A stretch of DNA of 64,000 nucleotides from Candidatus Omnitrophota bacterium (GCA_050250375.1 JBFWOS010000001.1:894361-958360), one strand, 5' to 3'; shown: positions 2,222-58,893, counted from the stretch's first letter. The notes: a model not told the origin generated them from the sequence alone. Program-made: numbers and translations.

Positions 2222-3601
2222 CTAAAGCTTCTTGAATATTTCTTTAATTTTTTCACTTTCCCTGGCATGGTCAACCATCGGCGGCGGATAGTTTGGAGCA
2301 AAAAGCGACCCTGCGCCTCCGCTCCATTGATGAATTTCCTGAGGGGTTAAATCTTTTAATTCGGGGATCCATTTCTTGATATATTTACATTCCGGATCAA
2401 ACCGTTCCTGCTGCCGCCAGGGATTAAAGACCCGGAAATACGGCTGAACATCGCAGCCGGTCGAAGCCACCCATTGCCAGTTGCCGTTGTTGACAAACGG
2501 ATCATAATCAATCAGCTTTTGGGCGAAATACTTCTCTCCCCAGCGCCAATCGATCTGAAGGTCTTTGACCAAAAGCGAGGCCGTGACCATCCGCACCCGA
2601 TTGTGCATAAAACCGGTTGTGTTCAACTCACGCATCCCGGCGTCAACGATTGGAAACCCGGTCCGGCCTTCACACCAGGCCTTAAAATCAGCCTCGTCCT
2701 GACGCCATTTGATTCTGTTATATTTCTCGTGAAACGCGTTTCCCAAAACTTCCGGGTAATGGTACCCCACATGCACAAAAAAATCCCGCCAATACAACTG
2801 CTTAATCAGGGTGTGGATCTTTCCCAGTTTTTCACAAACGGCGTAATAGACCTCACGGATCGATAATGTCCCGAATTTATGGTGGGCGGACAGTCCTGTT
2901 GTTCCCGGGATTGACGGGATGTCGCGTTCGGTGTCATAATTTTTATACCGGGCGATTTCCTTAAGAATTTTCAAACCGTTATTCCGTCCTCCATGAATAA
3001 ATATATTCTCGTTTTCTACCGGCAATACTTTTGAAAATATGTCGTCCCCGGCCTCTTCCGCAACAGGTTTGGTGTAATAATTGGTGTACAGATTATCTAC
3101 GGGTTTCCTGACCTCATTATCCATAGACTTATTCTTGAAAGGGGTATAGACACTGTAAACACCCCCGTCATCCCGCAGGACGTCATAAGGTTCATTCAGC
3201 AGATAATCCGGATAGTCTTTAAAAACGATATGATTTGTTTCACATTCATTCTTGATATTCAAATCACGATGGATGCTGTAAGGAGTGTAATCGTGATTAA
3301 CAAATACCGCGTCGATTCCATGCTCTTTGATTAAAGCCCGTATAATGGCTTTCGTGTTTCCATAAAATAAATACAGCCGGCCTGCTTTCTCTTTTAATTG
3401 GTCATCGAGGTCTGTCAATGATTCAACCATAAATTGAACACAATTTTCACCACGGAAAGGGTTGTTTTCCAGCTGTTGACTGTCAAAAATAAAACTGGGG
3501 AGGACTTCTTCAGATATCTTTAGGGCTTCGATTAAACCGGTGTTGTCGTGTAACCGTAAATCCCTCCGGAATATAAACAATGACTTCTTAAATTGTTTCA
3601 T
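2222..3601 (-). CDS. deoxyribodipyrimidine photolyase / cryptochrome family
   Basis: N-terminal FIFRRDLRLHDN motif and a FAD-binding C-terminal region with WRDFF, WQWVASTG and FNP motifs. Confidence 0.9.
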   Translation of the reverse strand: MKQFKKSLFIFRRDLRLHDNTGLIEALKISEEVLPSFIFDSQQLENNPFRGENCVQFMVESLTDLDDQLKEKAGRLYLFYGNTKAIIRALIKEHGIDAVFVNHDYTPYSIHRDLNIKNECETNHIVFKDYPDYLLNEPYDVLRDDGGVYSVYTPFKNKSMDNEVRKPVDNLYTNYYTKPVAEEAGDDIFSKVLPVENENIFIHGGRNNGLKILKEIARYKNYDTERDIPSIPGTTGLSAHHKFGTLSIREVYYAVCEKLGKIHTLIKQLYWRDFFVHVGYHYPEVLGNAFHEKYNRIKWRQDEADFKAWCEGRTGFPIVDAGMRELNTTGFMHNRVRMVTASLLVKDLQIDWRWGEKYFAQKLIDYDPFVNNGNWQWVASTGCDVQPYFRVFNPWRQQERFDPECKYIKKWIPELKDLTPQEIHQWSGGAGSLFAPNYPPPMVDHARESEKIKEIFKKL

Positions 3602-3648: not shown

Positions 3649-4920
3649 TCAGATTTCACAGCCGTATTCATCAAGAGATTGTGCAGAATTTTTCGTTTGG
3701 CGTCTATACTTGGAATGGGCCCGGGTAAAGTGTCCGGCCGCCATGGCTGCGGCAATTGAAATTTCCCCTGCCATTGCGACGACCGCGAAAATCTCGGCCA
3801 GCTTCCTGGCCTTATCCTGGCCGTAACACCCCATTAATTCCAGACATTCTTTTTGCGTCGGAAGATGTGTTCCGCCTCCGACCGTACCCACGATCATATT
3901 GGGCATGGATATGCTGACATATAAATCTCCTGTATCCGTCAGTTCTGCACGAGATGTTCCGATCGATGATTCAGCCACACACGCCACGTCCTGCCCGCAG
4001 GCCAGATAAAGCGCGGCCAGGGCGTTGGCAAAATGACCGTTGACTCCGATAGAGCCGCTCTGAATCCCGCCCTGCATGGCCATGAGTGAATATTGGACGA
4101 TATCCCGGGGAGTCACGTGCAGATACTTCTTCACAATTGATTTCTTAATACGCGCTTCAGCTAAAACTTTTTTCCCCCGTCCGGTCAAATGAGACAATGC
4201 CGTGGCTTTCTTGTCTCCGGACATATTCCCGTCGATGTACCATTTCCTGGGCTTGACCGGAGAATTGTCCAGGATGAATTGGCAGACTGCCTCCGTCGCG
4301 ATCGTGATCATATTTTGACCGGCCGCGTCACCGGTAAAATAATGAAAACTGATGAATACATAATTGCCTTCATGGGTTGACTGGATGTCCTGCAGACGGC
4401 CGTACCGGGTCATTGTGCCGACAATCTTCTTGAATGTCTCAAAATTTTCCGAACACCAGGCGATAAAACGGCTGGATTCCACGAGATCGTTAAAAATAAA
4501 ACCAGGAGACCGGGAAATGGAATCGCTGATACACATGACCGTCGCCCCTCCGCTCAGGCTGATCACTTTTGCCCCCCGGTTATAAGACGCGATTAAGGCC
4601 CCTTCCGTGGTCGCCATCGGTACATAAAAATCATTGTTAGCGTAGACCCCGTTTACGCGCAACGGACCGATGATCCCAACAGGAATTTGAAGGAGCCCGA
4701 TGAAGTTCTCAATATTCCCTTCATAGAGGGACGGATTATAGTTGTCGACCTTGCCCGATAAATTCGGCAACTTCTGTTTATCCTTAATCATTGATTTGTC
4801 TTTGGAGAGAGGAAATTCTTCAACCGGTTTTTCACCCAGACGTCCCGATACCCGGTCCAAAACTTCGGTGTCGATTACCGTGTTGATCAAGGTTTTGAAA
4901 TGAGGGTTCGGTGTTGGCAT
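3649..4920 (-). CDS. HMG-CoA reductase (probably class I)
   Basis: MATTEGALIAS and DAAGQNMIT motifs, with GTVGGGT near the C-terminus, characteristic of HMGR. Confidence 0.85.
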   Translation of the reverse strand: MPTPNPHFKTLINTVIDTEVLDRVSGRLGEKPVEEFPLSKDKSMIKDKQKLPNLSGKVDNYNPSLYEGNIENFIGLLQIPVGIIGPLRVNGVYANNDFYVPMATTEGALIASYNRGAKVISLSGGATVMCISDSISRSPGFIFNDLVESSRFIAWCSENFETFKKIVGTMTRYGRLQDIQSTHEGNYVFISFHYFTGDAAGQNMITIATEAVCQFILDNSPVKPRKWYIDGNMSGDKKATALSHLTGRGKKVLAEARIKKSIVKKYLHVTPRDIVQYSLMAMQGGIQSGSIGVNGHFANALAALYLACGQDVACVAESSIGTSRAELTDTGDLYVSISMPNMIVGTVGGGTHLPTQKECLELMGCYGQDKARKLAEIFAVVAMAGEISIAAAMAAGHFTRAHSKYRRQTKNSAQSLDEYGCEI

Positions 4921-4971: not shown

Positions 4972-5796
4972 TCAGGTAATTTTTATTTTCCCGGGATTCC
5001 AGGTCGGGACCGGATACTTTAATTTTAGCTGTTTCATCCGGTTAACGATGACTTCGGAAATAATTAAATTGCGGTACCATTTTCCGTTCGCAGGAATGAC
5101 ATACCAGGGGGCGTGCGGACGGCTGGTCTTGGACAAAAGGGTTTCATAGGCCGCCTGATAATCCCCCCAGAATTTCCGTTCTTTCAGATCATCCGGATTG
5201 AACTTCCAGTGTTTTCGCGGGTTATCCACCCGTTCCTGAAGACGATTCTTTTGTTCTTCTTTGCTGATATGCAAATAAAATTTTAAAATGACCATACCTT
5301 CATCCGCCAGCATTTTCTCAAACTGAACAATATGATCATACCGTTTCTTGATTATATCGGCGGATACCAGTTTATGGACCCGGGGGACCAGCACATCTTC
5401 ATAATGACTGCGATTGAAAACGACAATCTTTCCCTTTTCCGGTAATTCCCGGTGGATGCGCCATAAATAATCATGGCTCAATTCACCTTCCGTCGGTTTT
5501 TTGAAAGAAGCCACGCGGACACCCTGGGGATTGACCCCTTCAAAAATATTGCGGATCGTCCCGTCTTTTCCACCGGTATCCAGCGCCTGAAATACAATCA
5601 GTAATTGGAATCGTCCATCCACGTAAAACATATTTTGAAGTTCGATCAACTGGTTTCTCAGGTCTTCGAATTTCTTGATGCCCTGGTCCTTATCCCCTTT
5701 AAAGCAGGCCCGGTCGTCAGGGTCAAAACGGGACAAGTTGATTCGTTTCTGACTTTTTATTAGATACTGGTTCATCATATTTTTTTGACTTATCAT
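4972..5796 (-). CDS. ppk2: polyphosphate kinase 2 (polyphosphate:nucleotide phosphotransferase)
   Basis: Walker A-like ALDTGGKDGTI, FNRSHYEDVLV and PWYVIPANGKWYRN, the classic PPK2 signature. Confidence 0.9.
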   Translation of the reverse strand: MISQKNMMNQYLIKSQKRINLSRFDPDDRACFKGDKDQGIKKFEDLRNQLIELQNMFYVDGRFQLLIVFQALDTGGKDGTIRNIFEGVNPQGVRVASFKKPTEGELSHDYLWRIHRELPEKGKIVVFNRSHYEDVLVPRVHKLVSADIIKKRYDHIVQFEKMLADEGMVILKFYLHISKEEQKNRLQERVDNPRKHWKFNPDDLKERKFWGDYQAAYETLLSKTSRPHAPWYVIPANGKWYRNLIISEVIVNRMKQLKLKYPVPTWNPGKIKIT

Positions 5797-5819: not shown

Positions 5820-6806
5820 TTAATTATTAAAAATGGATTTTAACCCGCCGCCCAATGCCTTTTTTAATCCATCACGGGTCGTATCCCGGATAGCATCTTC
5901 AACCGCGGCATCTGTTTCTTCTTTGATGATGCTGCCTGCCCGATCTGAAATATCTTCGGAATCAGCCGGAAGCGAAGCTGATTTCTTATACTTTTGAGCA
6001 TTCTGAGTTTTTTGGAGGGCATCGTTATATTGCGGATTATTTTGCAATTCCTGCATTTGTTTCATCGCATCCATAAATTCCGGATCATTTTGCAATTCCT
6101 GCATCTGTTTCATGGCCTCCTGAACTTCCGGATCATTTTGCATTTCCAGCATCTGTCCCCGGGCCGCCTGCAATTCCTCGGATGTCGGCATATCCTCAAC
6201 ATCCCCCTCTACGATCTGCGCCCCGGCCGGAAGGGTAAGTTTGGCCAGATCTACCCTGGTATTTTCTTTGAATTCAACCGCCTTAGACGTAAAACTCATT
6301 CCCATCATATTGACCTCTGACTTTAGAGGAACACCTTTATAAACCCACACTTTAAAGTCACCAAAATTCTTTAAATGATAAATGTCCGTATTCTTATTCA
6401 AGACATTTTCTGAACCGATTTTGACTCCGCCGAACGACTTGATCATCTCTTCACTAAAATCTTTTGGCTGCTGGGATTTATTCCCCGTCATTCGCTGCAT
6501 TAATTCTGCCTGATTGTACCGGGTAGCAATATTCGTTGCCGGATCGTAATGGTACGACCATTCTCCATCGATATAATCGACATTCCGGGATGCCTGCGTC
6601 ATACCAAAAACCGTAACGGAATGATCCGTGTATCGGGCTTCTTTTTCCCCATAACTATCCCAGAACAACTCTTCGGTCCCGTTATTGCTTTCATACTTTA
6701 TGTACCCCGACTTTATATCGTAACGCTTGGTGCTTGCCTGAGCCGTAACCGTTGATAGTACCATTAGAGGCAAAACGGCGATGATTATTTTCTTTAAACA
6801 GTTCAT
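5820..6806 (-). CDS. secreted protein with Q/M-rich tandem repeats
   Basis: Signal peptide MNCLKKIIIAVLPLMVLSTVTAQA. Repeats (Q)MQELQNDPE(F/V)..AMKQ occur three times. Confidence 0.6.
   Translation of the reverse strand: MNCLKKIIIAVLPLMVLSTVTAQASTKRYDIKSGYIKYESNNGTEELFWDSYGEKEARYTDHSVTVFGMTQASRNVDYIDGEWSYHYDPATNIATRYNQAELMQRMTGNKSQQPKDFSEEMIKSFGGVKIGSENVLNKNTDIYHLKNFGDFKVWVYKGVPLKSEVNMMGMSFTSKAVEFKENTRVDLAKLTLPAGAQIVEGDVEDMPTSEELQAARGQMLEMQNDPEVQEAMKQMQELQNDPEFMDAMKQMQELQNNPQYNDALQKTQNAQKYKKSASLPADSEDISDRAGSIIKEETDAAVEDAIRDTTRDGLKKALGGGLKSIFNN
6037..6140. repeat. intragenic tandem repeat of about 45 nt, about 2.3 copies
   Basis: ttgcaattcctgcatctgtttcat...ccggatcatt is repeated and encodes the QMQELQNDPE peptide repeats. 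Confidence 0.7.
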
Positions 6807-6893: not shown

Positions 6894-7322
6894 TCAACAG
6901 CCGCCTTTTGAATCATGCGACGGGGTACAGCTCGGGCATGAATTATCCAGACAATGCGCCGCTACACCTTCATGGAAGTGAAGACTCCAGTCGTACAACG
7001 GTGATTTTGTCTCACAACGAAATGAAGTCCAGTCAAACCATCCGAAACACTGATAACCAAATACGTCATCCTTGATGGATAGCCCCAGTTTCGTATTAAC
7101 TTCCTCAGTCGTTCGCCATATTTCGCCATATTTTGGATAACTCCCGTTTTTTTGCTTGTATTTCTCCATGGCCAATTCGATAAGCCGCAAATTCCTCACC
7201 ACCCGCCTCTCATGATAAAACTGAATGGTTCTCAAATATCCGAAAAATATGACCGCAACCATGATCAACATAACCAGCACACGCAATATTCGTTTTAACA
7301 GAAAGCCCTCTTTAAAAAACAT
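6894..7322 (-). CDS. membrane-anchored Cys-rich protein with a pseudopilin-like helix, no prepilin motif
   Basis: N-terminal TM segment followed by RNLRLIELAMEKYKQKNGSYP, which is GspG-like, and a C-terminal region with 6 Cys (C..C...CPSC). It is a tandem paralogue of the next gene. Confidence 0.55.
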   Translation of the reverse strand: MFFKEGFLLKRILRVLVMLIMVAVIFFGYLRTIQFYHERRVVRNLRLIELAMEKYKQKNGSYPKYGEIWRTTEEVNTKLGLSIKDDVFGYQCFGWFDWTSFRCETKSPLYDWSLHFHEGVAAHCLDNSCPSCTPSHDSKGGC

Positions 7323-7329
7323 ATTTTAA

Positions 7330-7764
7330 TCACCTGCAGCCTTTTCTGGATTTTGGAAAACTAACACAGCTTGGGCAAAAATCGTCAATCGACGGTTGAT
7401 TACTGGCGCAGTGAACTGGTTTACCTTCATGCGCATGCAGTTTCCAGTCGTACAATGGAGACTTAGCTTCACACCGGAACGAAGCCCAGCCGGCATACCC
7501 CATACATTGATAATTGAATGTGTTGTCCTTAATCTTTGTCGCTAGATGATAATTCACGGAATCCGTATTGGCCCAAAGGAGTCCCTGGGCCGGGAAAAAA
7601 ATTATTTTTTTCCTGTATTCCTTCATTGCGGTTTCGAGGATGGTTAGCTGCCGAAATGCCTTTTGTTCATGATAATACTCTCTTATCTTTGTAAAACCAA
7701 AATAAATAATTACTGACAGAAGTAAAGCGCACCCGATACGGATTATCCGTATTTTAATTGTCAT
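7330..7764 (-). CDS. paralogue of the preceding Cys-rich pseudopilin-like membrane protein
   Basis: Same architecture (TM, FRQLTILETAMKEYRKK, then YQCMGYAGWASFRCEAKSPLYDW...HC...CPSC). It is clearly homologous to 6894-7322. Confidence 0.55.
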   Translation of the reverse strand: MTIKIRIIRIGCALLLSVIIYFGFTKIREYYHEQKAFRQLTILETAMKEYRKKIIFFPAQGLLWANTDSVNYHLATKIKDNTFNYQCMGYAGWASFRCEAKSPLYDWKLHAHEGKPVHCASNQPSIDDFCPSCVSFPKSRKGCR

Positions 7765-8695: not shown

Positions 8696-9436
8696 TTATT
8701 GATACAATTTATCAGGAAATATTTCTTCAATTAATTGGAATAATTCCGGATCGCCTTGTTTTAAAGTCTCACGGCTATTGAATGCGAATCCGCCTTCTTT
8801 AACCGTCTGCTGTTTATCCCACATATTATAATAGACTTCTAATCCGATCCCCAAGTAGGATACTTCCCAATATTTTCTCGGCTGCTCCGGATCAACCAAA
8901 TACGGATTAAACGTCCCTGCCGTAATCGCCCGGGACATCGATTTTCGTAGACGGCTTGACCAGCTTGGAAAGGCCTTATATATCCCGTATTGATAAACCA
9001 AATTAAGCATTTCTTCAATAGTGACATCTTTAACTCCCAACCTCTCCGCTTCGGTTCCCAATGGAATTATTTCCACAATCAAAAATTCCTGCATCGGACA
9101 ATTCTTTAAAATCCGTCCATAGTCCCTATACAATTCATCCAGGTCATCCCCATCTTCCATCAGAATGACCGTTGGGTTAGCTTTGACAATTTCTTGTCGG
9201 ATTTTGCCACCTCCCTTATCATCCCTGACCAAAAGACGATTATAAATATATTTAATATGATTTATAAAATTTTGTTCAGCTTCCGGGACAGCATACAGCA
9301 TAATGTCACCTAAACTCTCTTTTTTCTCAAACAATTCATTAATTTCAGGAGGCGGGCATTCGGCCCGAAGGTTTCGGGCAAAAAAAACAAAAGATATAAA
9401 TAAAAAGCATCCAAATATAGACGATAATTTCTTCAT
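8696..9436 (-). CDS. secreted hypothetical protein
   Basis: Signal peptide MKKLSSIFGCFLFISFVFFA. I recognise no domain. Confidence 0.5.
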   Translation of the reverse strand: MKKLSSIFGCFLFISFVFFARNLRAECPPPEINELFEKKESLGDIMLYAVPEAEQNFINHIKYIYNRLLVRDDKGGGKIRQEIVKANPTVILMEDGDDLDELYRDYGRILKNCPMQEFLIVEIIPLGTEAERLGVKDVTIEEMLNLVYQYGIYKAFPSWSSRLRKSMSRAITAGTFNPYLVDPEQPRKYWEVSYLGIGLEVYYNMWDKQQTVKEGGFAFNSRETLKQGDPELFQLIEEIFPDKLYQ

Positions 9437-24375: not shown

Positions 24376-24948
24376 ATGCCCAGAACTTTTATTGCCTTTG
24401 AAATTGATCCAGTTAATCAAAAATATCTGGCTAATCTAAAAGACCGTTTAAATTGGGGGAATGCCTCCATCAAATGGGTCAAAGCAGACAATATTCATTT
24501 AACCCTGAAATTCCTGGGTGATCTTTCTCAAAGTCAAATTGACTTAATTAAAGGAACTTTTCCAAAATTATTTACTGATTTTAATCCTGTGGCTGCTGAA
24601 ATTAACCGACTTGGTGCATTTCCGAATAGCAAACACCCGAAAGTCCTCTGGGCAGGGTTAACAGGAAAAATTGAAGCAATATCAGTAATCGTCGCCCGCC
24701 TCGAACAAGAGCTGGAATTGTTAGGTTTTCCAAAAGAACAAAAAAAATTTTCTTCTCATATCACCATCGGCCGGGTCAGATTTGAAAATAAATCGAAGAA
24801 AATCGGAGAAACGCTCCAGTCATTCTGTTTTACGCCGCCATTGCGGCAAAACTTAAATATCATCACGCTTTATGAAAGCACCTTAACCCCGCAGGGTCCG
24901 ATCTATGTCCCGCTGGTTAAAACTGAACTTGCCGATACCTCCCGTTAA
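24376..24948 (+). CDS. thpR: RNA 2',3'-cyclic phosphodiesterase (ThpR/LigT, 2H family)
   Basis: Two H-x-T-x motifs (HLTLKFLGD and HITIGR) in a protein of about 190 aa. Confidence 0.85.
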   Translation: MPRTFIAFEIDPVNQKYLANLKDRLNWGNASIKWVKADNIHLTLKFLGDLSQSQIDLIKGTFPKLFTDFNPVAAEINRLGAFPNSKHPKVLWAGLTGKIEAISVIVARLEQELELLGFPKEQKKFSSHITIGRVRFENKSKKIGETLQSFCFTPPLRQNLNIITLYESTLTPQGPIYVPLVKTELADTSR

Positions 24949-25429
24949 GGCCTTTCCTCAAATACATAGGTATAACGTCCGTTTGGTGTCTGACGAAATT
25001 TTCCGGAGGCCAGATTTCCGTCATCAATCTTGCGGTCCAGAAGGATTAATTCTTTCATCGATGCCGTTGTCCCAAAGAGGGAAATACCGGCATATTCATA
25101 GCCGCCCTTTTCCCCCCAATACGGGCCTTCCCAGTTGTAATGCCCGCCTAACGCGTCTGAATTCCAATCATCCGGATCAATATAGGCCGCCATTCCGGCC
25201 GGCAAAAATTATGTGTGTCCGCCGGAAGCAAACCATTATCTTGTTCATACTTCTTAAAACCACTGGAAAACGAGAGAAGATTATCCGCGGCACGGATAAT
25301 CCGAATTTTCGTCTGTACCTTTAACAACGCGTAAGCTGAAATCCCTACGACACACACGGATATAAATATAAAAACAAAAATTACGACAATCTTAACCAAA
25401 ACATGGATAAAAAAAATTTTCATAGTCAA
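24945..25429 (-). pseudogene. pseudopilin-like membrane protein interrupted by a 1-nt frameshift in an A5/T5 run
   Basis: ORFs 25148-25429 and 24945-25205 are N- and C-terminal parts of one GspG-like protein. The N-terminal part has a TM segment and IRAADNLLSFSSGFKKYEQDNGLLPA. The C-terminal part has YIDPDDW...NWEGPYWGE. Adding one T to the T5 run (plus-strand 25204-25208) restores ...THNFLPAGMAAYIDPDDW.... Confidence 0.55.
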
Positions 25430-47493: not shown

Positions 47494-47964
47494 CTAATAC
47501 AAACCGGTTCTCAGTTCGATATGATCCATCCCGTCACTGAGGACAACCACATTTTTCCGGATGGCCATCACAGTATATTCACCGAATGTGTCGTTAACGG
47601 CGACATACCGGTTGTTGATGACGGCGCTGGGATTCTGGTCGTCCCAGAAAATCCCGTTCAAGACCGGATCGGAATCCACGGCTTTATCCTGAGCCAAGGC
47701 GTTATTCGTTTTGAACTCTTCACCGTAATAAAAAGGGTTCCTGCCCCAGCCTTCATCCAATTCCTGCGAAAAGCTCAGAACCGTTACCTTTTTAAGTTGT
47801 TTGGCCAGGACGGTCAATTCGTTTTTCAATAAATCAGCTTCTTTGGTTTCTTTAGTCTTTTTAAAGGGAACCGTGCCCGGGGTATTTGACGCCTTAAACC
47901 ATATCCCCAGCGATATAAATATCAATAGGGGCAGCATTAACTGCAACACTTTATTTTTTTCCAC
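47494..47964 (-). CDS. PilP/GspC-like periplasmic assembly protein
   Basis: N-terminal TM or signal anchor with a small periplasmic beta-rich domain. Position in the cluster supports the call. Confidence 0.45.
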   Translation of the reverse strand: MEKNKVLQLMLPLLIFISLGIWFKASNTPGTVPFKKTKETKEADLLKNELTVLAKQLKKVTVLSFSQELDEGWGRNPFYYGEEFKTNNALAQDKAVDSDPVLNGIFWDDQNPSAVINNRYVAVNDTFGEYTVMAIRKNVVVLSDGMDHIELRTGLY

Positions 47965-48484
47965 GTTTAACGCCTTTGAGATAAATATCCACGTTCAAAC
48001 TGGCCTTGACCGTCGGTTGTATTGTTTCATCTCTGACAATATCAAAACTGCGCACCCGTACGGCCCCCCTTTCCAGATGGTTCAACGCGTCCAGAAATTC
48101 ACCCAGATTAGAATAATCCGACTGTATGTTGAGGTCCAGGGATTGATAAGGAAATTTAACCCGCTTTCTGTCGGTTTTTTCATCAAGACTGATCGTAATG
48201 AATGTTATGCCGTTTTCTTCTCCCAGCCGCATGATTTCATGGATGACCCCGGTGACTTCTTCCTTTGTCACCGGAGCGCCGGCCATTAATTCATTTTTTG
48301 TTTCGTGAAGGACTCCCCTGACCAGGGCCATATCATTTTTAATCCGGAATGTTTCTTGTTCGAGAAGGATAATTTCCTTTTCCTTGGGACGATAGACAAA
48401 GACGAACAATAAAAATAAGGCGCACAGAAAAACGGTCATGGCCGCAACTTTTAATAAACTTTGTTCCCCGTTGAATAATTTCAT
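47951..48484 (-). CDS. PilO/GspM-like inner-membrane assembly protein
   Basis: Single TM segment, coiled coil and periplasmic domain. Size and position are those of PilO or GspM. Confidence 0.55.
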   Translation of the reverse strand: MKLFNGEQSLLKVAAMTVFLCALFLLFVFVYRPKEKEIILLEQETFRIKNDMALVRGVLHETKNELMAGAPVTKEEVTGVIHEIMRLGEENGITFITISLDEKTDRKRVKFPYQSLDLNIQSDYSNLGEFLDALNHLERGAVRVRSFDIVRDETIQPTVKASLNVDIYLKGVKRGKK

Positions 48485-50172
48485 TCTGATTCTCCGGTCG
48501 ACACATCGCAGATGATCTCAAACTGGGCCAAATTGATATCATCCGTGTCTTTCTTCGCTTCAACCAGCCCGACATTCGGGCAAATCCCGTCCTGCAGATT
48601 CCGCATGAACTCAGACAACGCGGCCCCGCTGTCCTGCCCTTCTTCCGGCGTAATATATCCTTTCAGCCTGACCTGATGATCGGCCATACTCATCTGATGC
48701 AAATACATCCGGGGCAAAACCTGATGGCTTAACCCTCTTAAGAATGCTCCCCAGGATGGACGCTGGGCCAGGTGCTTGGAAAAAATCAGTTCTTCCTTGA
48801 ACCTCTTCATTTCCGGAACAAGGCGCTGATAGTCCCTTGTTACGGTCATATGGTTTTTTCTGGATTTATTTAACCGCCATGAAACGTTCACCAGCATAAA
48901 AATGACTAAAGAAAAAACACACAGCACGCTGACCGCCGTGAATATTTTTCCCGGCAGGCCCCCTTGCGTCTGGCGTGCCTTGTTCGGAAGAAAATTGATG
49001 TCATCCGGACCATGCAGGACAGCGCCAATCGCGAGGTCTAACCGGTGCGAAGGGCTTTTTTTAATATCTGACGTGATCCCTGACAGACCGGGCACATTGT
49101 CGACGATTTCCTCTACACGGATGTCAACATCCAGCTCCTGGGATAAATGCTGTTCAAGGCCTTTCATCCGGGCCAGTCCGCCCCGCAGGATTACTTTATG
49201 GATTCGTTCTCCCCGCTCCCCCTGATAAAATTCGAGCGAGCGGTCAATTTCATTCACCAGCAATTCAAGTTTAGGCCGCATCATGGATAACAGCTGGTTC
49301 GGCGTAATTCTCTCTTCGGCCCAGGAAACCTGGCCGACCTCGGGGATGCCATATTTAATTTTCATCTGTTCGGCTTCCCCAAACGTCAACTCCACCTTGC
49401 CCTTGGGGGTAACCAGGGCTTTGGTCAGACTGAGCGTGATATCGTTTCCGCAGAAAGGAAGCTTGCGGGAAAATTCAATCTTTCCATTTTTATAAACGTT
49501 AAACTCCGTGATCGTCCGTTCCATTTCAATAACGGCAAAAATTCCGGCGGAGGCACCGACGGAATTCATAAATATATTTTCCAGGGCTAATGAAGAAGGA
49601 ATAACCGCTGTCAACCGGCAGTCCGCCAAATAACCGCGATGACCGTCAGAGGAATTAAAAAAGGCGTTAATCAGGTTAATATTTTCCCGGGTGGTCGTGG
49701 CCGCTAATACATTGAGCTTGAGGTGTTCTCCATCCATACTCTTATCCAGGACTTTATAATCCATCACGGCTTCATCAAGAGAAAACGGAAACTGGTTCTT
49801 GGCCCCCCAACGGACCGCCTGGGCCAGTTCTTCTTCCGGCATGACCGGCAGGCGAATCTTGGCCACGGATGTCCTCGGGCAATTGACCACACAGATCACA
49901 TCCGCATTTTTCTCCGTGACGCCTTTAAAAACTTCTTTCAGTCCTTTTATGACATTGACTTTATAATCGATCTTTTCGATGTCCGTCATCTCTGCGCACG
50001 CGCTATAAACCAAATGCAGATTGTCTTTTTCTGAAACAAACTGGACCAGCTTGATTGAACCGGATCCGATGCTGACACCGATCAATGACCGGTTCTTTTT
50101 ATTTATAAATTTTCTCTTTTCCATCTCTTTAACCTTGTAACTCTTTCCAGGAGCCGCCCACCGAACTGACAA
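48481..50172 (-). CDS. PilM-PilN fusion (GspL-like) assembly protein
   Basis: N-terminal actin-like PilM domain (IGVSIGSGSIKLV), a mid-protein TM helix (IFTAVSVLCVFSLVIFMLV) and a PilN-like periplasmic tail. Confidence 0.7.
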   Translation of the reverse strand: MSVRWAAPGKSYKVKEMEKRKFINKKNRSLIGVSIGSGSIKLVQFVSEKDNLHLVYSACAEMTDIEKIDYKVNVIKGLKEVFKGVTEKNADVICVVNCPRTSVAKIRLPVMPEEELAQAVRWGAKNQFPFSLDEAVMDYKVLDKSMDGEHLKLNVLAATTTRENINLINAFFNSSDGHRGYLADCRLTAVIPSSLALENIFMNSVGASAGIFAVIEMERTITEFNVYKNGKIEFSRKLPFCGNDITLSLTKALVTPKGKVELTFGEAEQMKIKYGIPEVGQVSWAEERITPNQLLSMMRPKLELLVNEIDRSLEFYQGERGERIHKVILRGGLARMKGLEQHLSQELDVDIRVEEIVDNVPGLSGITSDIKKSPSHRLDLAIGAVLHGPDDINFLPNKARQTQGGLPGKIFTAVSVLCVFSLVIFMLVNVSWRLNKSRKNHMTVTRDYQRLVPEMKRFKEELIFSKHLAQRPSWGAFLRGLSHQVLPRMYLHQMSMADHQVRLKGYITPEEGQDSGAALSEFMRNLQDGICPNVGLVEAKKDTDDINLAQFEIICDVSTGESE

Positions 50173-50602
50173 TATTAGGCGGTCCCGCCGTCAGCGAAAC
50201 TTCCTGCTGAATTTCTCTTTCGGAATTATGGCTTACTCCTCTGGCCGTGATCAGAATATTTGCCCCTGAAGTTTCAACCCAGACCGTGTACCGGCCGTCT
50301 CCCAGTGTTTCTTCTTGAGGATCGTTCGAACCGGGCCCGGGATCAGCCGGATAAGCCGACGTCCGCCAGCTCCCGTCCGTCGAACCGTCGGGGGCCGTTG
50401 TTTGCAGGTACCAGACCGCCTTATTCAGCCCGGCCTCGGCAAAATAAAATGCCCTGACCGTATCTGTCTGGGCATCCAGCAATTTTGTATTGCTCATCAC
50501 CAGGCTTATATAAGCCGAAGCGACCACCGTCAGAAAAACCATAAAAATCAGCGTCAGCAGCATGGTTGCCGCCCGCTTGCGTGATAGTCTGTATAATTTC
50601 AT
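50129..50602 (-). CDS. PilX/GspK-like minor pilin
   Basis: Hydrophobic N-terminal helix followed by the AEAGL motif of PilX_N. Confidence 0.55.
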   Translation of the reverse strand: MKLYRLSRKRAATMLLTLIFMVFLTVVASAYISLVMSNTKLLDAQTDTVRAFYFAEAGLNKAVWYLQTTAPDGSTDGSWRTSAYPADPGPGSNDPQEETLGDGRYTVWVETSGANILITARGVSHNSEREIQQEVSLTAGPPNIVSSVGGSWKELQG

Positions 50603-51117
50603 TATAAATTTCTCGGCCTCACATTAGTCCGCATTCTTACCGTTGAGTCATTCCGGCTTAAGGTCCAATCCAAAGTAATTAAATTATTGTTCCGGTCAAA
50701 AGGAAAATTAACCGGAGATATTAAATTTCTGACAAGGACTTTTCCGGCCCCGTAACTGAGATCTCCCTCGGCAAACTTAATCTGATAATTGTCTTCTGAA
50801 TAAGGTGGATTTGGTTCAGGGTCGTCCGGGCTGTACAGATAAACCCTGAAATTCACATCGCCGCTTCCCATGTCCGCGGTAAAGGAAAGGCTGCTTTCTG
50901 AAATATCATCAATGCTCTTTGCCTGGACAAGATAACGCGTAACCTGATCAATCGCCTGGGCCGCGTCTGTCCTGTTTGAAATCCGGTCGTAACCGTTTTC
51001 AAAGATACTTGTTCCGGTCGTATAAATCAAACCGATCGTAAAAATCAGAACCCCGGTAACCAGGACGCTCATGATCAGCTCGGTAATCGTAAATCCATGC
51101 TGGGTCGATATCCTCAT
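50602..51117 (-). CDS. minor (pseudo)pilin with class III signal peptide
   Basis: MRISTQHG|FTITELIMSVLV, a prepilin cleavage and methylation motif. Confidence 0.75.
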   Translation of the reverse strand: MRISTQHGFTITELIMSVLVTGVLIFTIGLIYTTGTSIFENGYDRISNRTDAAQAIDQVTRYLVQAKSIDDISESSLSFTADMGSGDVNFRVYLYSPDDPEPNPPYSEDNYQIKFAEGDLSYGAGKVLVRNLISPVNFPFDRNNNLITLDWTLSRNDSTVRMRTNVRPRNL

Positions 51118-51138
51118 AACTTTCCTCGCCGGGGCTAT

Positions 51139-51522
51139 TTAATAATCATAATCCGCCAACAACGTGACCAGTTCTACATTATGATCGACCCCTTTATCTG
51201 TCCAGTACACCTTCACATTAACCTGCTTGGGATCACCGGCAACGGTCACTTCCCGGTCAAAATCGCTAAAATCGCCCCCTACATTGGTCCGGGCCGCAGA
51301 CATTGAATCAATATCCGCATATGATCCCGCATCCTTGATTTCCTCCATCGCTTCCTGACCTAAACTGATGGCTATCGCCGTATATTCATTGTCTGAATCC
51401 AGCGTCGTTGTCATGCTGAACAGACTGAACACGGCGGTCACTCCGGTTGCCAACAGAACCATCGTGATCATCGCCTCCAGGAGGGTGAAACCTTTTCGGT
51501 CACTACGACTCAATCTGTTCAT
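51139..51522 (-). CDS. minor (pseudo)pilin
   Basis: Internal start MNRLSRSDRKG|FTLLEAMITMVLL, a prepilin motif. The ORF track extends to 51579. Confidence 0.7.
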   Translation of the reverse strand: MNRLSRSDRKGFTLLEAMITMVLLATGVTAVFSLFSMTTTLDSDNEYTAIAISLGQEAMEEIKDAGSYADIDSMSAARTNVGGDFSDFDREVTVAGDPKQVNVKVYWTDKGVDHNVELVTLLADYDY

Positions 51523-51544
51523 CGGATCAAAACACTTTCCTGTC

Positions 51545-51994
51545 TTACCATCCCAATCCATTGGTGACAAAAGGATCATCGGCCTGATCCCCTAATAGCT
51601 GGCCCGTTTCGTCTTCGATACCCGTGATGTCATAGACCCGGTTGACCCCGGCGCTGAATATGACATAAAATTGTTCGTCATCCGACAAAATGTAGTTGTA
51701 CTCCTGCTGCGGTAAAAACGGATCATAAAGGATTTCGTTAACGATCTTCGGAGTCGCGTCCAGAAGCTGGTCCGCGATGACTGAATCCGAAGTGTTCGGG
51801 TACTCTTTGGGAACCTGGTTCACATAAAAAGATTCAATCGCGGCCTGGACTGTCCTGAGTTCCATCTGGGCCTTTGAAACATTGGCCTGGTCCTGCATCC
51901 CCTTAAACCTTGGAATCGCAATCCCGATTAAAATGGAAATGACAACCATGACCACCATAAGTTCAATCAGCGTAAAACCTTTTTTGTTCTTCAT
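51545..51994 (-). CDS. major pilin / GspG-like pseudopilin
   Basis: MKNKKG|FTLIELMVVMVVISILIGIAIP, the canonical type IV pilin N-terminus. Confidence 0.8.
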   Translation of the reverse strand: MKNKKGFTLIELMVVMVVISILIGIAIPRFKGMQDQANVSKAQMELRTVQAAIESFYVNQVPKEYPNTSDSVIADQLLDATPKIVNEILYDPFLPQQEYNYILSDDEQFYVIFSAGVNRVYDITGIEDETGQLLGDQADDPFVTNGLGW

Positions 51995-52024
51995 ACTTCC
52001 CCCCGGATTTTGTTAATAAACATT

Positions 52025-53239
52025 TTATCTTTGTATCGTCTTGACCATATCAAACAAGGGCAGCAACATTGATGCCATAATAAAACCGGCAAGGCCGCCC
52101 ATAATAATGATGAGAACCGGCTCTATCAGCGTCAGCAGCCGCCGGATCGAATGTTCAATCGATTTATCGTAAAAATCAGCGATCTTGTCCAGCATGTCAT
52201 GCAGCCGGCCGGTCTGTTCTCCGACGGCGATCATCTGGGTGACATCCGGCGGGAACCGTCCGCTTTTAACCAACGGTTCTGTGACCGTGGCCCCTTCTTC
52301 TACACTTTTGCGGGTGTCGTTCACCACTTTGGCCATGACGACATTCCCGATGGTGTCCCGCGTGATGCTGAGCGCATAAAGCATTGAAACCCCGCTTTTC
52401 AAAAGCGTGGCCAGCGTACGGCAAAAGCGGGCGATCACCGTCTTGTAAATAAGATCACCGATGACGGGAATTCTAAGCTTGAGATCGTCAAATTGCGCTC
52501 TTCCTTGTTTCGTTTCGATATAAAATTTGACCAGCCCGACAACAAAAGAGACCACCAAAATCAAAAGAAACCAATACTTCCGAATTCCCACCCCGAGAGA
52601 ATGCAGGATGAGTGTGGGTAAAGGTATAGTTACATCAGCCCTTGTGAATATTTCCATAAACTTTGGTATTACAAAACTTATGATAATTATTATGACCGCA
52701 ATGCTGACAAAAAGCAATATGGACGGATAAAATATTGCATTCTTTATTTTTTGCCGGATGTCCTCTTCGTGTTCGATATAAATCGCGTAACGATTGAGGG
52801 TCGGGCTTAATGTCCCGCTGACCTCGCCGCTTTTAACCATATTAATGAACAGAGCGGAAAAAACCCGCGGAAACTTCGCCATGGATTCCGATAAAGAGGT
52901 CCCCGACGCAATCAATTCACTGACATCATGGATTACTTTCTTGAAACCGGTATTTTTAATCTGCCGGTTCAACGTCTTCAGGCTGGTCAATATCGGCACT
53001 CCCGCTTCCAGCATATTCGCCAGCTGGATGCTGAAAAATATCATCTCCAGGGTTTTGACCTTTTTTACAACCCCGCCGGGATTGACGGCACCGTTTCCAT
53101 TCTCGGCCTCCTGAATAAACGTCGGGACATATCCCATGGTGTGTAATCGTTTGGCCAGGGCATCCTGCGTAGGGGCTTCCATCGTTCCCCGGATCAGGTT
53201 TCCGTTATCTTCTCTCGCTTTATAAAGGTATGTGGGCAT
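52025..53239 (-). CDS. GspF/PilC platform protein
   Basis: Two T2SSF-type repeats and three TM helices. Confidence 0.9.
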   Translation of the reverse strand: MPTYLYKAREDNGNLIRGTMEAPTQDALAKRLHTMGYVPTFIQEAENGNGAVNPGGVVKKVKTLEMIFFSIQLANMLEAGVPILTSLKTLNRQIKNTGFKKVIHDVSELIASGTSLSESMAKFPRVFSALFINMVKSGEVSGTLSPTLNRYAIYIEHEEDIRQKIKNAIFYPSILLFVSIAVIIIIISFVIPKFMEIFTRADVTIPLPTLILHSLGVGIRKYWFLLILVVSFVVGLVKFYIETKQGRAQFDDLKLRIPVIGDLIYKTVIARFCRTLATLLKSGVSMLYALSITRDTIGNVVMAKVVNDTRKSVEEGATVTEPLVKSGRFPPDVTQMIAVGEQTGRLHDMLDKIADFYDKSIEHSIRRLLTLIEPVLIIIMGGLAGFIMASMLLPLFDMVKTIQR

Positions 53240-53242
53240 GTC

Positions 53243-54859
53243 TTATGCTTCCTCTTGCGTAACCCGCAAAATTTCTTCTCGGGTCGTGATTCCCTGGTCG
53301 ACTTTTTTCATCCCGTCTTCACGCAGCGTAATCATCCCGGAATTAACCGCTTCCTGATTTATATCTTCCGATGAGGCCTTCTTGATGATTAACTGACGCA
53401 ACGGATCAGTAACGCGCATCAGCTCATAAATGCCTGTCCTGGTTTTATAACCGGATTGATGACATTTGGGACATCCCTTTCCGGAACAATCCTGACAAAT
53501 CCGGCGGACCAGCCGCTGGGCGAGCACGCCCGTCAGCGATGATGAAATCAAAAAAGGCTCAATGCCCATATCGATCAACCGGGCAACGGCCCCGGCCGCG
53601 TTATTGGTATGCAGGGTGGCCAAAACCAGATGTCCGGTCAGCGCCGCCTGCACGGCAATCTCGGCCGTTTCCAGATCCCTAATTTCCCCGACCATGATGA
53701 TGTCCGGATCCTGCCTGAGGATAGAACGCAGGCCGGTGGCGAATGTCAGGTCAACGCTCGGGTTGATCTGGATCTGACGGATTCCCTTTAATCTATATTC
53801 GACCGGGTCTTCAATGGTGACAATATTTTTCTCCGGGGTATTGATCTCGTTCAATGAGGCGTACAAAGTCGTCGTTTTACCGCTTCCCGTCGGACCGGTG
53901 ACCAGGATAATCCCGTTTGGCTGGTACAATAATTTAATATATTTTTCGAGAACCTCTTTCTGAAATCCGGTCTCTTTTAAATGTAAAAGCATGCTCCCCT
54001 GATCGAGAAGACGCATCACGATATTTTCCCCGTAAATGGTCGGCATGCAGGAAACACGGATATCAATCTGACGGCGCCCTATCTGTAACTGGAAACGGCC
54101 GTCCTGGGGTTTACGCCTCTCGGCAATATTCATATTAGACAAAATTTTTATGCGGGAAATAATCGCCGACTGCAGGTGCCGGGGAAAATCACTCTGTTCA
54201 CTTAAAACACCGTCGACCCGATAACGGACTTTCAGGGCGTCTTCATCCGGCTCAATATGGATATCCGACACCCCTTCGGAAACAGCCTGCATAATGGTCA
54301 TGTTGACCAGTTTAATCACCGGCGGTTCTTCACCGATATTTTTAAGCTGGTCCGCTTCCAAGTCGTCCTCTCTGAACAAGGGCTTTTGCTCTTCCAGACT
54401 CCGGATGACTTCCTGCATCGTGCCTTTCACCGTATAATGTTCATCAATCGCCTTTTGAATCTCTTTCTCCGTCGCGATGGCCTGTTCCACCGTCAGCCCG
54501 GTCCTGAGCATGACCTCATCAAGGGCCAATAGATTAAAAACATCCGCCATCACGCAGGTCAGCGTACTGCCGATTTTTAAAACCGGGATGATCTGGTGTT
54601 TCCGGGCCAGATCTTCCGGGACGAGTTCGATCAGTTTCGGATCGATCAAGTGGCTGTTAAGATCAATCCGCGGAATGCTCATTTGTTCCGCCAGAAAATT
54701 CACCATATCCTCTTCTGACACAAACCCCGTCTTGATCAGCGATTTACGGACCGATTCACCGGACTTCACGGCACTCTGGACCTTCATCCATTGATCATCC
54801 GTGATGATGTTATGCTCCAGGAGCATTTCCCCGAGCGATTTTTTAATTTTTCTGGACAC
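53243..54859 (-). CDS. GspE/PilB/MshE-type assembly ATPase with an MshEN-like N-terminal domain
   Basis: Walker A GPTGSGKTTTL and the tetracysteine motif CQDCSGKGCPKC. The N-terminal 150 aa carries two LGxxLxxxG(I/V)(I/V)...Q-like motifs (SLGEMLLEHNIITDDQ; SLIKTGFVSEED). Confidence 0.9.
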   Translation of the reverse strand: MSRKIKKSLGEMLLEHNIITDDQWMKVQSAVKSGESVRKSLIKTGFVSEEDMVNFLAEQMSIPRIDLNSHLIDPKLIELVPEDLARKHQIIPVLKIGSTLTCVMADVFNLLALDEVMLRTGLTVEQAIATEKEIQKAIDEHYTVKGTMQEVIRSLEEQKPLFREDDLEADQLKNIGEEPPVIKLVNMTIMQAVSEGVSDIHIEPDEDALKVRYRVDGVLSEQSDFPRHLQSAIISRIKILSNMNIAERRKPQDGRFQLQIGRRQIDIRVSCMPTIYGENIVMRLLDQGSMLLHLKETGFQKEVLEKYIKLLYQPNGIILVTGPTGSGKTTTLYASLNEINTPEKNIVTIEDPVEYRLKGIRQIQINPSVDLTFATGLRSILRQDPDIIMVGEIRDLETAEIAVQAALTGHLVLATLHTNNAAGAVARLIDMGIEPFLISSSLTGVLAQRLVRRICQDCSGKGCPKCHQSGYKTRTGIYELMRVTDPLRQLIIKKASSEDINQEAVNSGMITLREDGMKKVDQGITTREEILRVTQEEA

Positions 54860-54874
54860 GGTTCACCCTTTGTT

Positions 54875-55249
54875 TCAATTCTTTACGGTTAACCCTTTGA
54901 TTTTTTCCAACAGATCTTCAAAATCGATGAGCTTGTTCACGTAATCATCAAATCCCACTTCCCTGGCCATGGTTGTATCGATCTCGTCCTGTGAACGGGC
55001 CGTAAACATGACAATGGGAATTTTCTGAAACCGGCTGTCCGCCTTCAGCAGGGCGCACACCTTGAACCCGTTCATCTTCGGCATCATCTCATCCATGATA
55101 ATAATATCGGGAACCACTTCTTTCGCTTTGGTCAATCCTTCCTGCCCGTCGAAAGCAAGGGACACATCAAATCCGGCCTTCTGAAACCTGATGGCCAGCG
55201 TCTCGGAAATATCGCTCTCATCATCGACAATCAAAATTTTTTGGGGCAT
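54875..55249 (-). CDS. single-domain response regulator (CheY-like)
   Basis: ILIVDDE...IIIMDEMMPKMNG...FTAR...NK receiver motifs. Confidence 0.85.
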   Translation of the reverse strand: MPQKILIVDDESDISETLAIRFQKAGFDVSLAFDGQEGLTKAKEVVPDIIIMDEMMPKMNGFKVCALLKADSRFQKIPIVMFTARSQDEIDTTMAREVGFDDYVNKLIDFEDLLEKIKGLTVKN

Positions 55250-55271
55250 GTTTGGCTCCTGTATTTTATAA

Positions 55272-56105
55272 TCATTGTCCGTCCGGCTTCCCGGAATTAT
55301 TATTTTGCCGGTCTTTATTTTTATCTTTCTCCCGTTTCAACAACATGGTCACTTCTTCCAGCAATAACTTTGGGTCATTGGCGTTGATATATCCGTCCGC
55401 CTGGGTTTTATTTTGTATCTTCTCAAAAATGGGAATATTTTCGGCCTCTCCGTTTGGAAAATATAAGAAAAACTTTACAAACTTCAACCGCGGCATTTTC
55501 TTTAACTTAAGGATGACTTCATCCCCGCCCAAATCAGGCAGGGTCATCTTGACAACAACGGCATCGGGTAAGTTGGTCATCACCTTTTCAATGGCCTTCC
55601 CTCCGTTCGGCGCCAATGAAACAATGTGTCCGTCGTTCAGGAAAGCCATGCTGATCTGGCCCCCGGACAACGGATCGTCTTCAACTATCAATATATTGTG
55701 CGGGGGTATCGTTTCTTTCTTAAACTCATCAAAATCTTTGTTCGTAATGACCTTGATTTCCCTCAACAACTCGTCAAATTCATATGGTTTGTTCATAAAT
55801 CCGTCAACGTATAGCTGCCGGAATAACCCTTCCATATTCGCCCTGGCCGTCAGGACTAAAATCGGATATTTTGGTTTGTCATTGGCCTCCAAGATCTTTT
55901 CGTAAAATTCGATCCCGCCCATGACCGGCATGTTAATATCCAAGATGATCAAATCGGGGATAAAATGCTCCAATTTTTCTAATCCTTCCAGCCCGTTACA
56001 AGCCGTCTCCACGCTGTATCCGGCTTTCCTGATTCTGTAAGCCGCCATCTCGGTCAGATCGGCCTCATCATCAATGATTAATATTTTCTTTTGGGGGTCA
56101 CTCAT
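55272..56105 (-). CDS. tandem REC - degenerate REC protein
   Basis: The first REC is canonical (ILIIDDE...LIILDINMP...LTAR...NKP). In the second the phospho-acceptor Asp is replaced (VVVKMTLPD). Confidence 0.75.
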   Translation of the reverse strand: MSDPQKKILIIDDEADLTEMAAYRIRKAGYSVETACNGLEGLEKLEHFIPDLIILDINMPVMGGIEFYEKILEANDKPKYPILVLTARANMEGLFRQLYVDGFMNKPYEFDELLREIKVITNKDFDEFKKETIPPHNILIVEDDPLSGGQISMAFLNDGHIVSLAPNGGKAIEKVMTNLPDAVVVKMTLPDLGGDEVILKLKKMPRLKFVKFFLYFPNGEAENIPIFEKIQNKTQADGYINANDPKLLLEEVTMLLKREKDKNKDRQNNNSGKPDGQ

Positions 56106-56126
56106 TGTTCATTACTCCCTGGACAA

Positions 56127-58861: not shown

Positions 58862-58893
58862 CTTAGAACTCCATCCCTACCGTCTTGCCGGTT

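Follow-up and report, generated by a model that had tools for sequence, protein, structure and literature searches.

Duplicated pilin homologues without a class III signal peptide in an uncultivated Omnitrophota bacterium

Two adjacent genes of an uncultivated Omnitrophota bacterium, here named A and B, encode proteins that are homologous to bona fide pilins along their whole length and that belong to a small clade lacking the prepilin signal. In the reading that we consider likely, they are duplicated type IV pilin homologues in which the class III signal has degenerated to a plain signal-anchor, and their products would be held in the inner membrane. The window referred to below is the whole stretch of DNA that was analysed, 64,000 nucleotides long; its features relevant to this work are the following.

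6894..7322, minus strand: gene A, 142 aa, pilin-derived, without class III signal peptide, the downstream paralogue (ORF).
7330..7764, minus strand: gene B, 144 aa, pilin-derived, without class III signal peptide, the upstream paralogue (ORF).
7233..7322, minus strand: residues 1-30 of A, basic N-terminal tail MFFKEGFLLKR and hydrophobic helix, a putative degenerate remnant of the prepilin signal (alignment A2, hydropathy).
7690..7764, minus strand: residues 1-25 of B, very short basic N-terminal tail MTIKIR and hydrophobic helix, leader peptide absent (alignment, hydropathy).
6897..7049, minus strand: residues 92-142 of A, Cys/His-rich part of the head, with C92, C103, H115, H117, H123, C124, C129-P-S-C132 and C142 (alignment).
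7333..7506, minus strand: residues 87-144 of B, Cys/His-rich part of the head equivalent to A 92-142 (alignment).
24945..25429, minus strand: second, unrelated pilin-family gene in which the prepilin signal is also lost, split by a frameshift in the T5 run at 25204-25208.
47494..54859, minus strand: type IV filament (T4P/T2SS-like) cluster with T2SSE, T2SSF, N_methyl pilins, a PilM-PilN fusion and PilO, given only as context for A and B.

The initial annotation described A and B as tandem paralogues, and both ORFs are indeed present at exactly the positions given, on the minus strand, separated by 7 nt. A Shine-Dalgarno-like sequence (AGGTGA) overlaps the 3' end of B and could be the ribosome-binding site for A. 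Each ATG is preceded, one or two codons upstream, by an in-frame stop, and therefore neither protein has a longer N-terminus. A scan for promoters and terminators between 5700 and 8800 gave counts that were not informatively above those of shuffled sequences. The A protein is identical to NCBI entry AB7S78_09695, a 'hypothetical protein' on a 1.2-Mb contig of a Candidatus Omnitrophota MAG. The two proteins share 43% identity over 138 residues (BLASTP, E 3e-47), a likeness far beyond chance. Both contain the proposed N-terminal hydrophobic helix, with a mean Kyte-Doolittle value of 2.8 (A) and 2.2 (B) for the hydrophobic 17-mer that follows the basic tail, and both carry the helix motif and the six-cysteine C...CPSC motif that had been quoted for them. 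The six conserved C-terminal cysteines (C92, C103, C124, C129, C132 and C142 in A) are embedded in the motif YQC.G...W.SFRCE.KSPLYDW.LH.HEG...HC...CPSC...GC, and B has a seventh cysteine inside the membrane helix.

According to a 2023 review, prepilins 'invariably display' a class III signal peptide (PMC10191384), whose leader 'invariably ends with' Gly or Ala and is followed by 20-25 hydrophobic residues, 'often' with a Glu5 that forms a salt bridge to the N-terminal amine of the next subunit (PMC10191384). The absence of a prepilin cleavage motif, claimed from the start, agreed with our searches: A and B matched no Pfam family, N_methyl (PF07963, IPR012902) included, even at E<=10. In alignment A2 (see below), Gly6-Phe7 of the window A protein fall on the -1/+1 positions, and Lys10/Arg11 stand in place of Glu5, Lys10 being the residue aligned to it. 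Among the A orthologues, the residue aligned to -1 is Gly in the window, Asn in locus L001, Ser in locus L009, and Arg or Phe elsewhere. The N-termini of P0005 and P0004 (MTSQKQNRLAQRTPRM... and MTNLKFFPAT...) have no Gly/Ala-Phe junction, and the B-type proteins, all of them leaderless, begin at about position +2. Every clade member has two to four Lys/Arg within the N-terminal 11-16 residues, as well as a conserved Arg in the first turn of the hydrophobic helix, which interrupts the hydrophobic stretch. Thus, A and B carry no recognisable class III signal, given the lack of a PF07963 match, the variable residue at -1 (G, N, S, R or F) and the Lys/Arg at Glu5. These sequence features argue against cleavage by prepilin peptidase and against polymerisation into a filament; A and B would have their N-terminus on the inner side of the membrane, would escape the peptidase, and would be unfit for the hydrophobic core of a filament. 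B was also considered as a lipoprotein and this was rejected: in 'RIG|C' the Cys lies before, not after, the hydrophobic stretch, and L009 does not share this Cys.

A and B could still be genuine minor pilins whose non-canonical signal is recognised, or for which cleavage is unneeded, for example as a tip-capping subunit. The Gly6-Phe7 retained by the window A protein at the aligned cleavage position would suit such a role, as would the minor pilin-like behaviour of the canonical relatives in filament clusters, and the tip-capping subunit normally lacks Glu5, as does a PilX-like protein encoded in the filament cluster of the window. This explanation is rather unlikely, however, since the leader 'invariably ends with' Gly/Ala (PMC10191384), whereas A orthologues have N, S, R or F there and B is leaderless; moreover, two to four Lys/Arg would lie inside the buried alpha1N core, no N_methyl match was obtained, and the pair was not beside pilus genes in the loci recovered. 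The tip-capping minor pilins of the GspK/PilK/PilX type resemble A and B in lacking Glu5, on which the salt bridge between subunits depends (PMC10191384), but they keep a Gly/Ala-ended leader and are processed, in contrast to the absent conserved cleavage residue and the basic residues in alpha1N of A and B.

The pilin ancestry of the pair was revealed by remote homology. Profile A1, made from five signal-less clade sequences only, was scanned with HMMER against 1.84 billion cluster representatives and matched 118 proteins at E<=1e-3, nearly all of them 125-160 aa long and aligned over almost the whole profile; a repetitive outlier of 558 aa (P0098) was removed. About 110 relatives of ~140 aa lie outside the window clade, and nearly all have a canonical G/A|FTLxE signal. 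The best canonical match was P0007 (E 7.7e-16, query 5-132 to target 12-139), and the best ten prepilin matches had E values from 7.7e-16 to 1e-10 in this library of 1.8 billion proteins. Among the retrieved sequences are N-termini of the textbook prepilin type (KAFTIIEVLVV, RGFTLMEIMIV and SAFTLVEIIVV, for example), and these sequences have in common with A and B the ER at the alpha1 position of E38 and the head motifs INxxLGL, Y.C...C, GW.LH.H and HC...CP[ST]C...C. Alignment A2 comprises 40 sequences, 35 of them outside the window clade; PF07963 was matched by 31 of these 35, and ComP_DUS (PF16732) by 7 of the 40. The view of A and B as pilin-like proteins without a processing site is therefore sustained both by the prepilin matches of A1 over residues 5-132 and by the N_methyl domains of most of the other A2 members.

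The canonical Cys/His-rich prepilins of uncultivated Omnitrophota/PVC-type bacteria, such as P0007, P0008, P0016 and P0043, are similar to A and B in length (~140-150 aa), are 26-35% identical to them over the full length, and share with them the alpha1C motif 'ER..(A)..NL..I..A...Y' together with INxxLxL, Y.C...C, GW.LH.H and HC...CP.C...C. They differ in having a normal class III signal and in being usually encoded in or beside E-F-pilin clusters, while the window clade has neither. The motif [GAS][FVLIMY][TSA]..E was found in 93 of the 122 family sequences, and most of the others were called from the internal Met of 'FTLME' onwards and retain Glu5. Glu5 is absent only from the window clade and from two isolated sequences, P0055, which lacks the motif, and P0097, which reads G|FSYSQ. 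In a midpoint-rooted neighbour-joining tree made from residues >=29 only, leaving out the signal region, the seven signal-less sequences form one clade that lies ten nodes from the root and has 17 canonical prepilins as its sister group. Because this clade is nested among canonical prepilins, the absence of the signal is a derived loss.

Profile comparison with solved pilins, which the initial annotation had proposed for GspG and PilE, depended on the breadth of the profile. The A2 profile matched Geobacter PilA-N (E 2e-11), GspG (5wda, 1.6e-10), Neisseria PilE (1.2e-8, aligned to position 110) and Thermus PilA4 (4.5e-8), while the clade-only profile gave only noise against PDB sequences, GspG 5wda having an E of 1.9. 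The narrower claim that the helix is specifically GspG-like was not upheld. A and B had nothing significant in NCBIfam, where the GspG model TIGR01710 reached residues 6-64 of A at a sub-threshold 15.1 bits (cut-off 88.85, E 0.018), and the relatives are pilins of type IV pilus-like clusters, some of them matching ComP_DUS. The general alpha1 pattern is thus common to GspG and A/B, as reflected in the weak matches to residues 6-64, but the T2SSG family (PF08334) was not matched and the head domain is different.

The predicted structure is consistent with this ancestry. An AlphaFold2 model of full-length A, obtained with a five-sequence alignment, had a pLDDT of 88.7 and a pTM of 0.78, and a model of residues 29-142 based on 13 sequences showed the same elements with a pLDDT of 92.6 and a pTM of 0.86. 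The model of A consists of a continuous helix (3-59), a second helix (72-79), strands at 89-94, 101-106, 113-117 and 120-124, and then a Cys-rich tail. This predicted order of elements is that expected of a pilin: alpha1, alpha-beta loop, antiparallel sheet and disulfide-bonded C-terminal region. The pilin fold that the initial annotation proposed to look for was thus recovered as a long alpha1 helix plus a four-stranded antiparallel sheet, but the pilin 'lollipop' (alpha1 helix of ~50 residues plus antiparallel-sheet head) is seen at the level of topology only, because Foldseek gave neither the full-length nor the 29-142 model a match in the PDB at E<1e-3. Among the Foldseek matches listed, the best superpositions were with pilins, namely Clostridioides difficile PilA1 (4tsm_A; TMq 0.46, rmsd 4.0, 83 columns) and Thermus TTHA1221 (4bhr_A; TMt 0.57, rmsd 3.3, 74 columns), and the Neisseria meningitidis pilus 8p3b was listed with an E of 0.65.

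The cysteines of the 122 family members, in counts that ignore shared ancestry, are distributed in a clear pattern. Cys92 and Cys103 were both present in 109 members and both absent from 11 (1+1 discordant), and Cys132 and Cys142 were both present in 82 and both absent from 29 (2+9 discordant). Cys124 and Cys129 are near-invariant and persist in short four-cysteine variants ending in '...C....CP'. This pattern of presence and absence suggests three sequential disulfides, C92-C103, C124-C129 and C132-C142, and appears easier to reconcile with a head in the periplasm than with a CPxC pair active in redox chemistry. His115, His117 and His123 are likewise linked in their occurrence across the family (H115 and H123: 45 both, 61 neither, 16 one, again ignoring shared ancestry), and none of the three varies in the window clade, nor does Glu118, so that this cluster may be a candidate binding site, possibly for a metal.

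The same residues could be read in another way, in which a Sec signal peptide is removed by signal peptidase I, so that a soluble protein rich in disulfides, with no relation to filaments, is released into the periplasm or secreted, its pilin head having been recruited as a metal-binding or redox (CPxC) module. A basic n-region and a hydrophobic h-region are present, the three histidines co-vary, linkage to pilus genes is lacking, and CP[ST]C resembles redox-active CxxC motifs. Signal peptidase I cleavage was nevertheless judged unlikely, since no small residue is conserved at -1/-3, V or L being found at -1 of the candidate sites, and AlphaFold gives one continuous pilin-like helix from 3 to 59. 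Structural disulfides also fit better than a redox role, given that Cys132 and Cys142 come and go together while Cys124 and Cys129 persist, and that the fold does not resemble thioredoxin: CPSC follows the pilin-type beta-sheet, in the C-terminal tail, and no thioredoxin-family Pfam model was matched. This explanation is, therefore, unlikely, and both it and the minor-pilin explanation are less likely than degeneration of the signal to a membrane anchor.

Close relatives of the pair are few. A word-indexed search of 5.8 billion proteins returned only three other close relatives (82%, 68% and 50% identity), without names or Pfam domains, and the window clade amounts to seven sequences from at least five assemblies. 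Neither the A1 profile nor P0043 extended the family in the GTDB species-representative genomes, where A1 found no relative and P0043 returned its own contig alone. The gene order glycosyltransferase-2, B, A, a 328-aa secreted protein and PPK2 is common to the window, L001 (a 57-kb contig) and L009 (a 3.8-kb contig), and the neighbours in these loci are the GT2, the secreted protein, PPK2 and Mla genes. Orthologues of B were found in L001, in L009 and as P0006; the latter (B-type) and P0005 (A-type), both cluster representatives, share one 1656-bp contig, so the pair is kept in three syntenic loci and a fourth short contig. The most distant clade member, P0004, stands alone, flanked by genes on the opposite strand.

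Nei-Gojobori comparison of the window, L001 and L009 orthologues gave a pN of 0.07-0.21 and a pS of 0.57-0.90. The synonymous sites are near saturation; wherever dS could be corrected, dN/dS was 0.07-0.12, with values of 0.07 for B against L001 and 0.08-0.09 for A. A dN/dS of about 0.1 and the conservation of the pair indicate that both genes are functional and kept by selection. This bears directly on the idea that A and B are functionless former pilin genes in decay, on their way to becoming pseudogenes, as the frameshift in the other signal-less pilin-like gene of the window (24945-25429) might suggest. The A and B ORFs are intact in every assembly examined, and 36 columns, including those of all six cysteines, are invariant across five clade members. 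Decay is extremely improbable, being contradicted by the selection analysis and effectively refuted.

The initial annotation asked whether homologues of A and B flank T2SS/T4P loci. This is so for the canonical relatives, which lie in or adjoining type IV filament clusters in three of the four loci examined, but not for the A/B pair, beside which no pilus genes were found in any of the four loci recovered. In L003, the four-cysteine relative P0126 is the third pilin gene, preceded by genes for a secretin, GspE, GspF, a TPR protein and two major-pilin-like proteins, and followed by two more minor pilins. In L014/L015, five pilin genes follow those for PilM(N), PilO, secretin, GspE and GspF, and P0148 is the third of the five. 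In L006-L008, an E-F-TPR-pilin cluster with a four-cysteine paralogue has at its end, in convergent orientation, P0043, a relative with the full set of six cysteines and the histidines. The six-cysteine member P0133 is an orphan adjoining acetolactate synthase. Several of the pilins that neighbour the canonical relatives match PF16732. From these loci it follows that, in its behaviour, the ancestral family resembles the minor pilins of T4P/T2SS-like machines; the A/B pair, without the signal, has left the filament-cluster context. Being encoded with type IV filament machinery is a typical, not an obligatory, feature of pilins, and it distinguishes the canonical relatives from A and B.

The type IV filament cluster of the window itself, to whose machine the initial annotation suggested that A and B are possibly accessory, is 40 kb from the pair. 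It encodes three canonical prepilin N-termini, KKG|FTLIE, RKG|FTLLE and QHG|FTITE, and the presence of canonical prepilins in the same window shows that prepilin processing still exists in this organism. Pilins of the window are encoded at 51545-51994 (a canonical prepilin), 51139-51579, 50602-51117 and 50129-50602, and none of the pilins of this cluster has the six-cysteine motif.

The gene at 24945-25429 had been proposed as a third, Cys-less relative with the same N-terminal design. It was found to be instead a frameshifted gene of another pilin family, in which two ORFs (25148-25429 and 24945-25205) overlap in different frames. One added T fuses the frames into a protein of 161 aa, and full-length homologues have 155-161 aa and up to 64% identity. 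Intact syntenic orthologues are present in L016 and L017, in the same context between a methyltransferase gene and LigT; it follows that either the window copy became a pseudogene recently or the frameshift is an assembly error in the homopolymer. The family of this gene is characterised by the motif NWEGP...YAGISLFG...DDGNL.G.FRQT.NGRYTY. A third A/B paralogue was rejected because the A1 clade profile did not detect the protein, and because hhalign aligned the A/B family with this one over the alpha1 helix only (88% probability, 48 columns).

In alignment A5, 13 of the 16 members of this second family carry the canonical G/A|F[TS]LVE, and in the window copy and its two closest relatives an unrelated hydrophobic helix replaces the prepilin signal. 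Judging from these alignments, signal loss is independent in two pilin families of this lineage, which strengthens the view that it is a selected conversion and not an annotation artefact.

On this basis, the following course of events may be proposed for the signal-anchor reading. The ancestry of A and B would lie in a Cys/His-rich (minor-)pilin family of Omnitrophota/PVC-type uncultivated bacteria. Both proteins would be inserted with the N-terminus in and the C-terminus out, uncut by prepilin peptidase, and the Lys/Arg at Glu5 and the extra Arg in alpha1N would keep them from being extracted or polymerised like normal pilins, so that they would stay in the inner membrane, where their sequences indicate that they most likely remain anchored. 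In the periplasm they would display a head stabilised by three probable disulfides and bearing the cluster of His115, His117 and His123. A complex between A and B is probable because their genes appear to be translationally coupled. More speculatively, the alpha1 helix and the head could dock onto a type IV filament machine, at its pilins or its platform, and A and B might be its static, non-polymerising partner, acting as an anchor, a stopper or a sensor.

The archaeal proteins ArlF and ArlG (FlaF/FlaG) contain the archaellin domain without a class III signal (PMC10117864), and they resemble A and B in combining a filament-subunit domain with the absence of this signal, which is an analogy and not membership of one sequence family. 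Their archaellin domain is a beta-sandwich with no homology to A and B, which have the head of a bacterial pilin, and they are encoded inside the arl cluster, while 40 kb separates A and B from the filament genes. In the functional class that they define, the proteins are also needed for the machine to work and form a heteromer (PMC10117864). A bolder proposal can be built on this parallel, namely that one Omnitrophota lineage turned pilins of at least two unrelated families into signal-less, membrane-anchored periplasmic proteins, and that A and B form a heterodimeric, non-polymerising partner of a filament machine, the bacterial counterpart of the ArlF/ArlG stator or anchor, with a His cluster that might bind metal or sense a periplasmic signal. 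We regard this proposal as doubtful.

The pilin superfamily is well known, and so are pilin-like proteins without Glu5. Literature searches on Omnitrophota pili or uncleaved pilin-like proteins found nothing on the A/B family, and in the literature searched there was no account of bacterial pilins that form a clade devoid of the entire class III signal and are conserved as a tandem pair. A and B are a clear, somewhat unexpected evolutionary observation in a tiny, uncultivated clade: a prepilin-homologous group without the signal that is nonetheless under strong purifying selection and retained as a tandem pair, to be set against the statement that prepilins 'invariably display' it (PMC10191384). 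That a second, unrelated pilin family shows the same loss in the same lineage adds to its significance. If the signal-anchor reading is true, this would be a bacterial case of a pilin head re-used outside the filament, for which the archaeal ArlF/ArlG are the only well-described parallel that we found. The practical impact is limited for now, with a clade this small and found only in metagenomes.

The minor pilins of the Neisseria ComP type (PF16732) also have small, disulfide-bonded heads, and some A2 sequences match their family as stated above; A and B, however, do not match it, their Cys pattern differs, and nothing indicates DNA binding. The canonical relatives are annotated at most as 'prepilin-type N-terminal cleavage/methylation domain-containing protein', and neither a Pfam/NCBIfam model nor a literature description of the Cys/His-rich head was found. 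The profile searches thus define a previously unnamed Cys/His-rich pilin family of ~120 cluster representatives from poorly known ultra-small or uncultivated bacteria.

Loss of the canonical prepilin signal extends to a pilin-like gene of the window that is unrelated in family to the tandem Cys-rich genes A and B:
24945-25429, minus strand: pilin-like gene of a family other than that of A and B, with the motif NWEGP...YAGISLFG...DDGNL.
The canonical signal is present in 13 of the 16 members of its family, and has been lost in the small subclade of the window gene, as in the A/B clade. The window copy consists of two ORFs, with a frameshift within a T5 run (25204-25208), while its syntenic orthologues at two other loci, L016 and L017, are both intact.

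Non-canonical N-termini were also found in two Cys-rich pilin family members outside the window clade, namely P0055, which lacks the G/A|F..E motif, and P0097, which reads G|FSYSQ, with Gln replacing Glu5. These sequences hint at further independent degenerations of the prepilin signal. Related uncultivated bacteria carry two paralogous Cys-rich subfamilies within or adjoining a single pilus cluster:
L006, 5008-8625, and L014, 6975-9495: two Cys-rich pilin subfamilies.
The first is short, has four Cys and lies within the pilin operon; the second is a long 6-Cys/His form (P0043), convergent at the cluster end.

The window has its own filament genes, preceded by a set of regulators:
47494-54859, minus strand: type IV filament cluster with GspE, GspF, prepilins, PilX-like, PilM-PilN fusion and PilO.
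54875-60015, minus strand: five response-regulator or hybrid histidine-kinase genes in a row, directly upstream of GspE.
The pilin-type genes of the cluster encode three canonical prepilins and one PilX-like protein; the PilM-PilN fusion has 563 aa, and an uncharacterised 156-aa protein is also encoded. Neither secretin nor prepilin peptidase genes were found among the window ORFs scanned against Pfam, whereas a secretin is present in the related clusters L003 and L014. Of the regulators, one protein has a single receiver and another a double receiver; two more are receiver-HisKA-HATPase hybrids, and the fifth is a further histidine kinase. The set may control the filament cluster.

Several other genes surround A and B:
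8696-9436, minus strand: 246-aa ORF with a signal-peptide-like N-terminus, adjoining a GT2 gene.
5820-6806, minus strand: 328-aa protein with a signal peptide, directly downstream of the pair.
2222-3601, 4972-5796 and 3649-4920, minus strand: DNA photolyase, polyphosphate kinase 2 and HMG-CoA reductase.
The last three (HMG-CoA reductase match, E 1.6e-117) lie close downstream of A/B, in a gene order identical in L001, a contig with A/B orthologues. The 246-aa ORF had no Pfam match, and neither did a 250-aa gene at the matching position in L001. The 328-aa protein, also without a Pfam match, contains about three tandem repeats of ~16 residues, MQELQNDPE..(E/D)AMKQ, close to its C-terminus, and its position immediately downstream of A/B is kept in both L001 and L009, a second contig with the orthologous pair.
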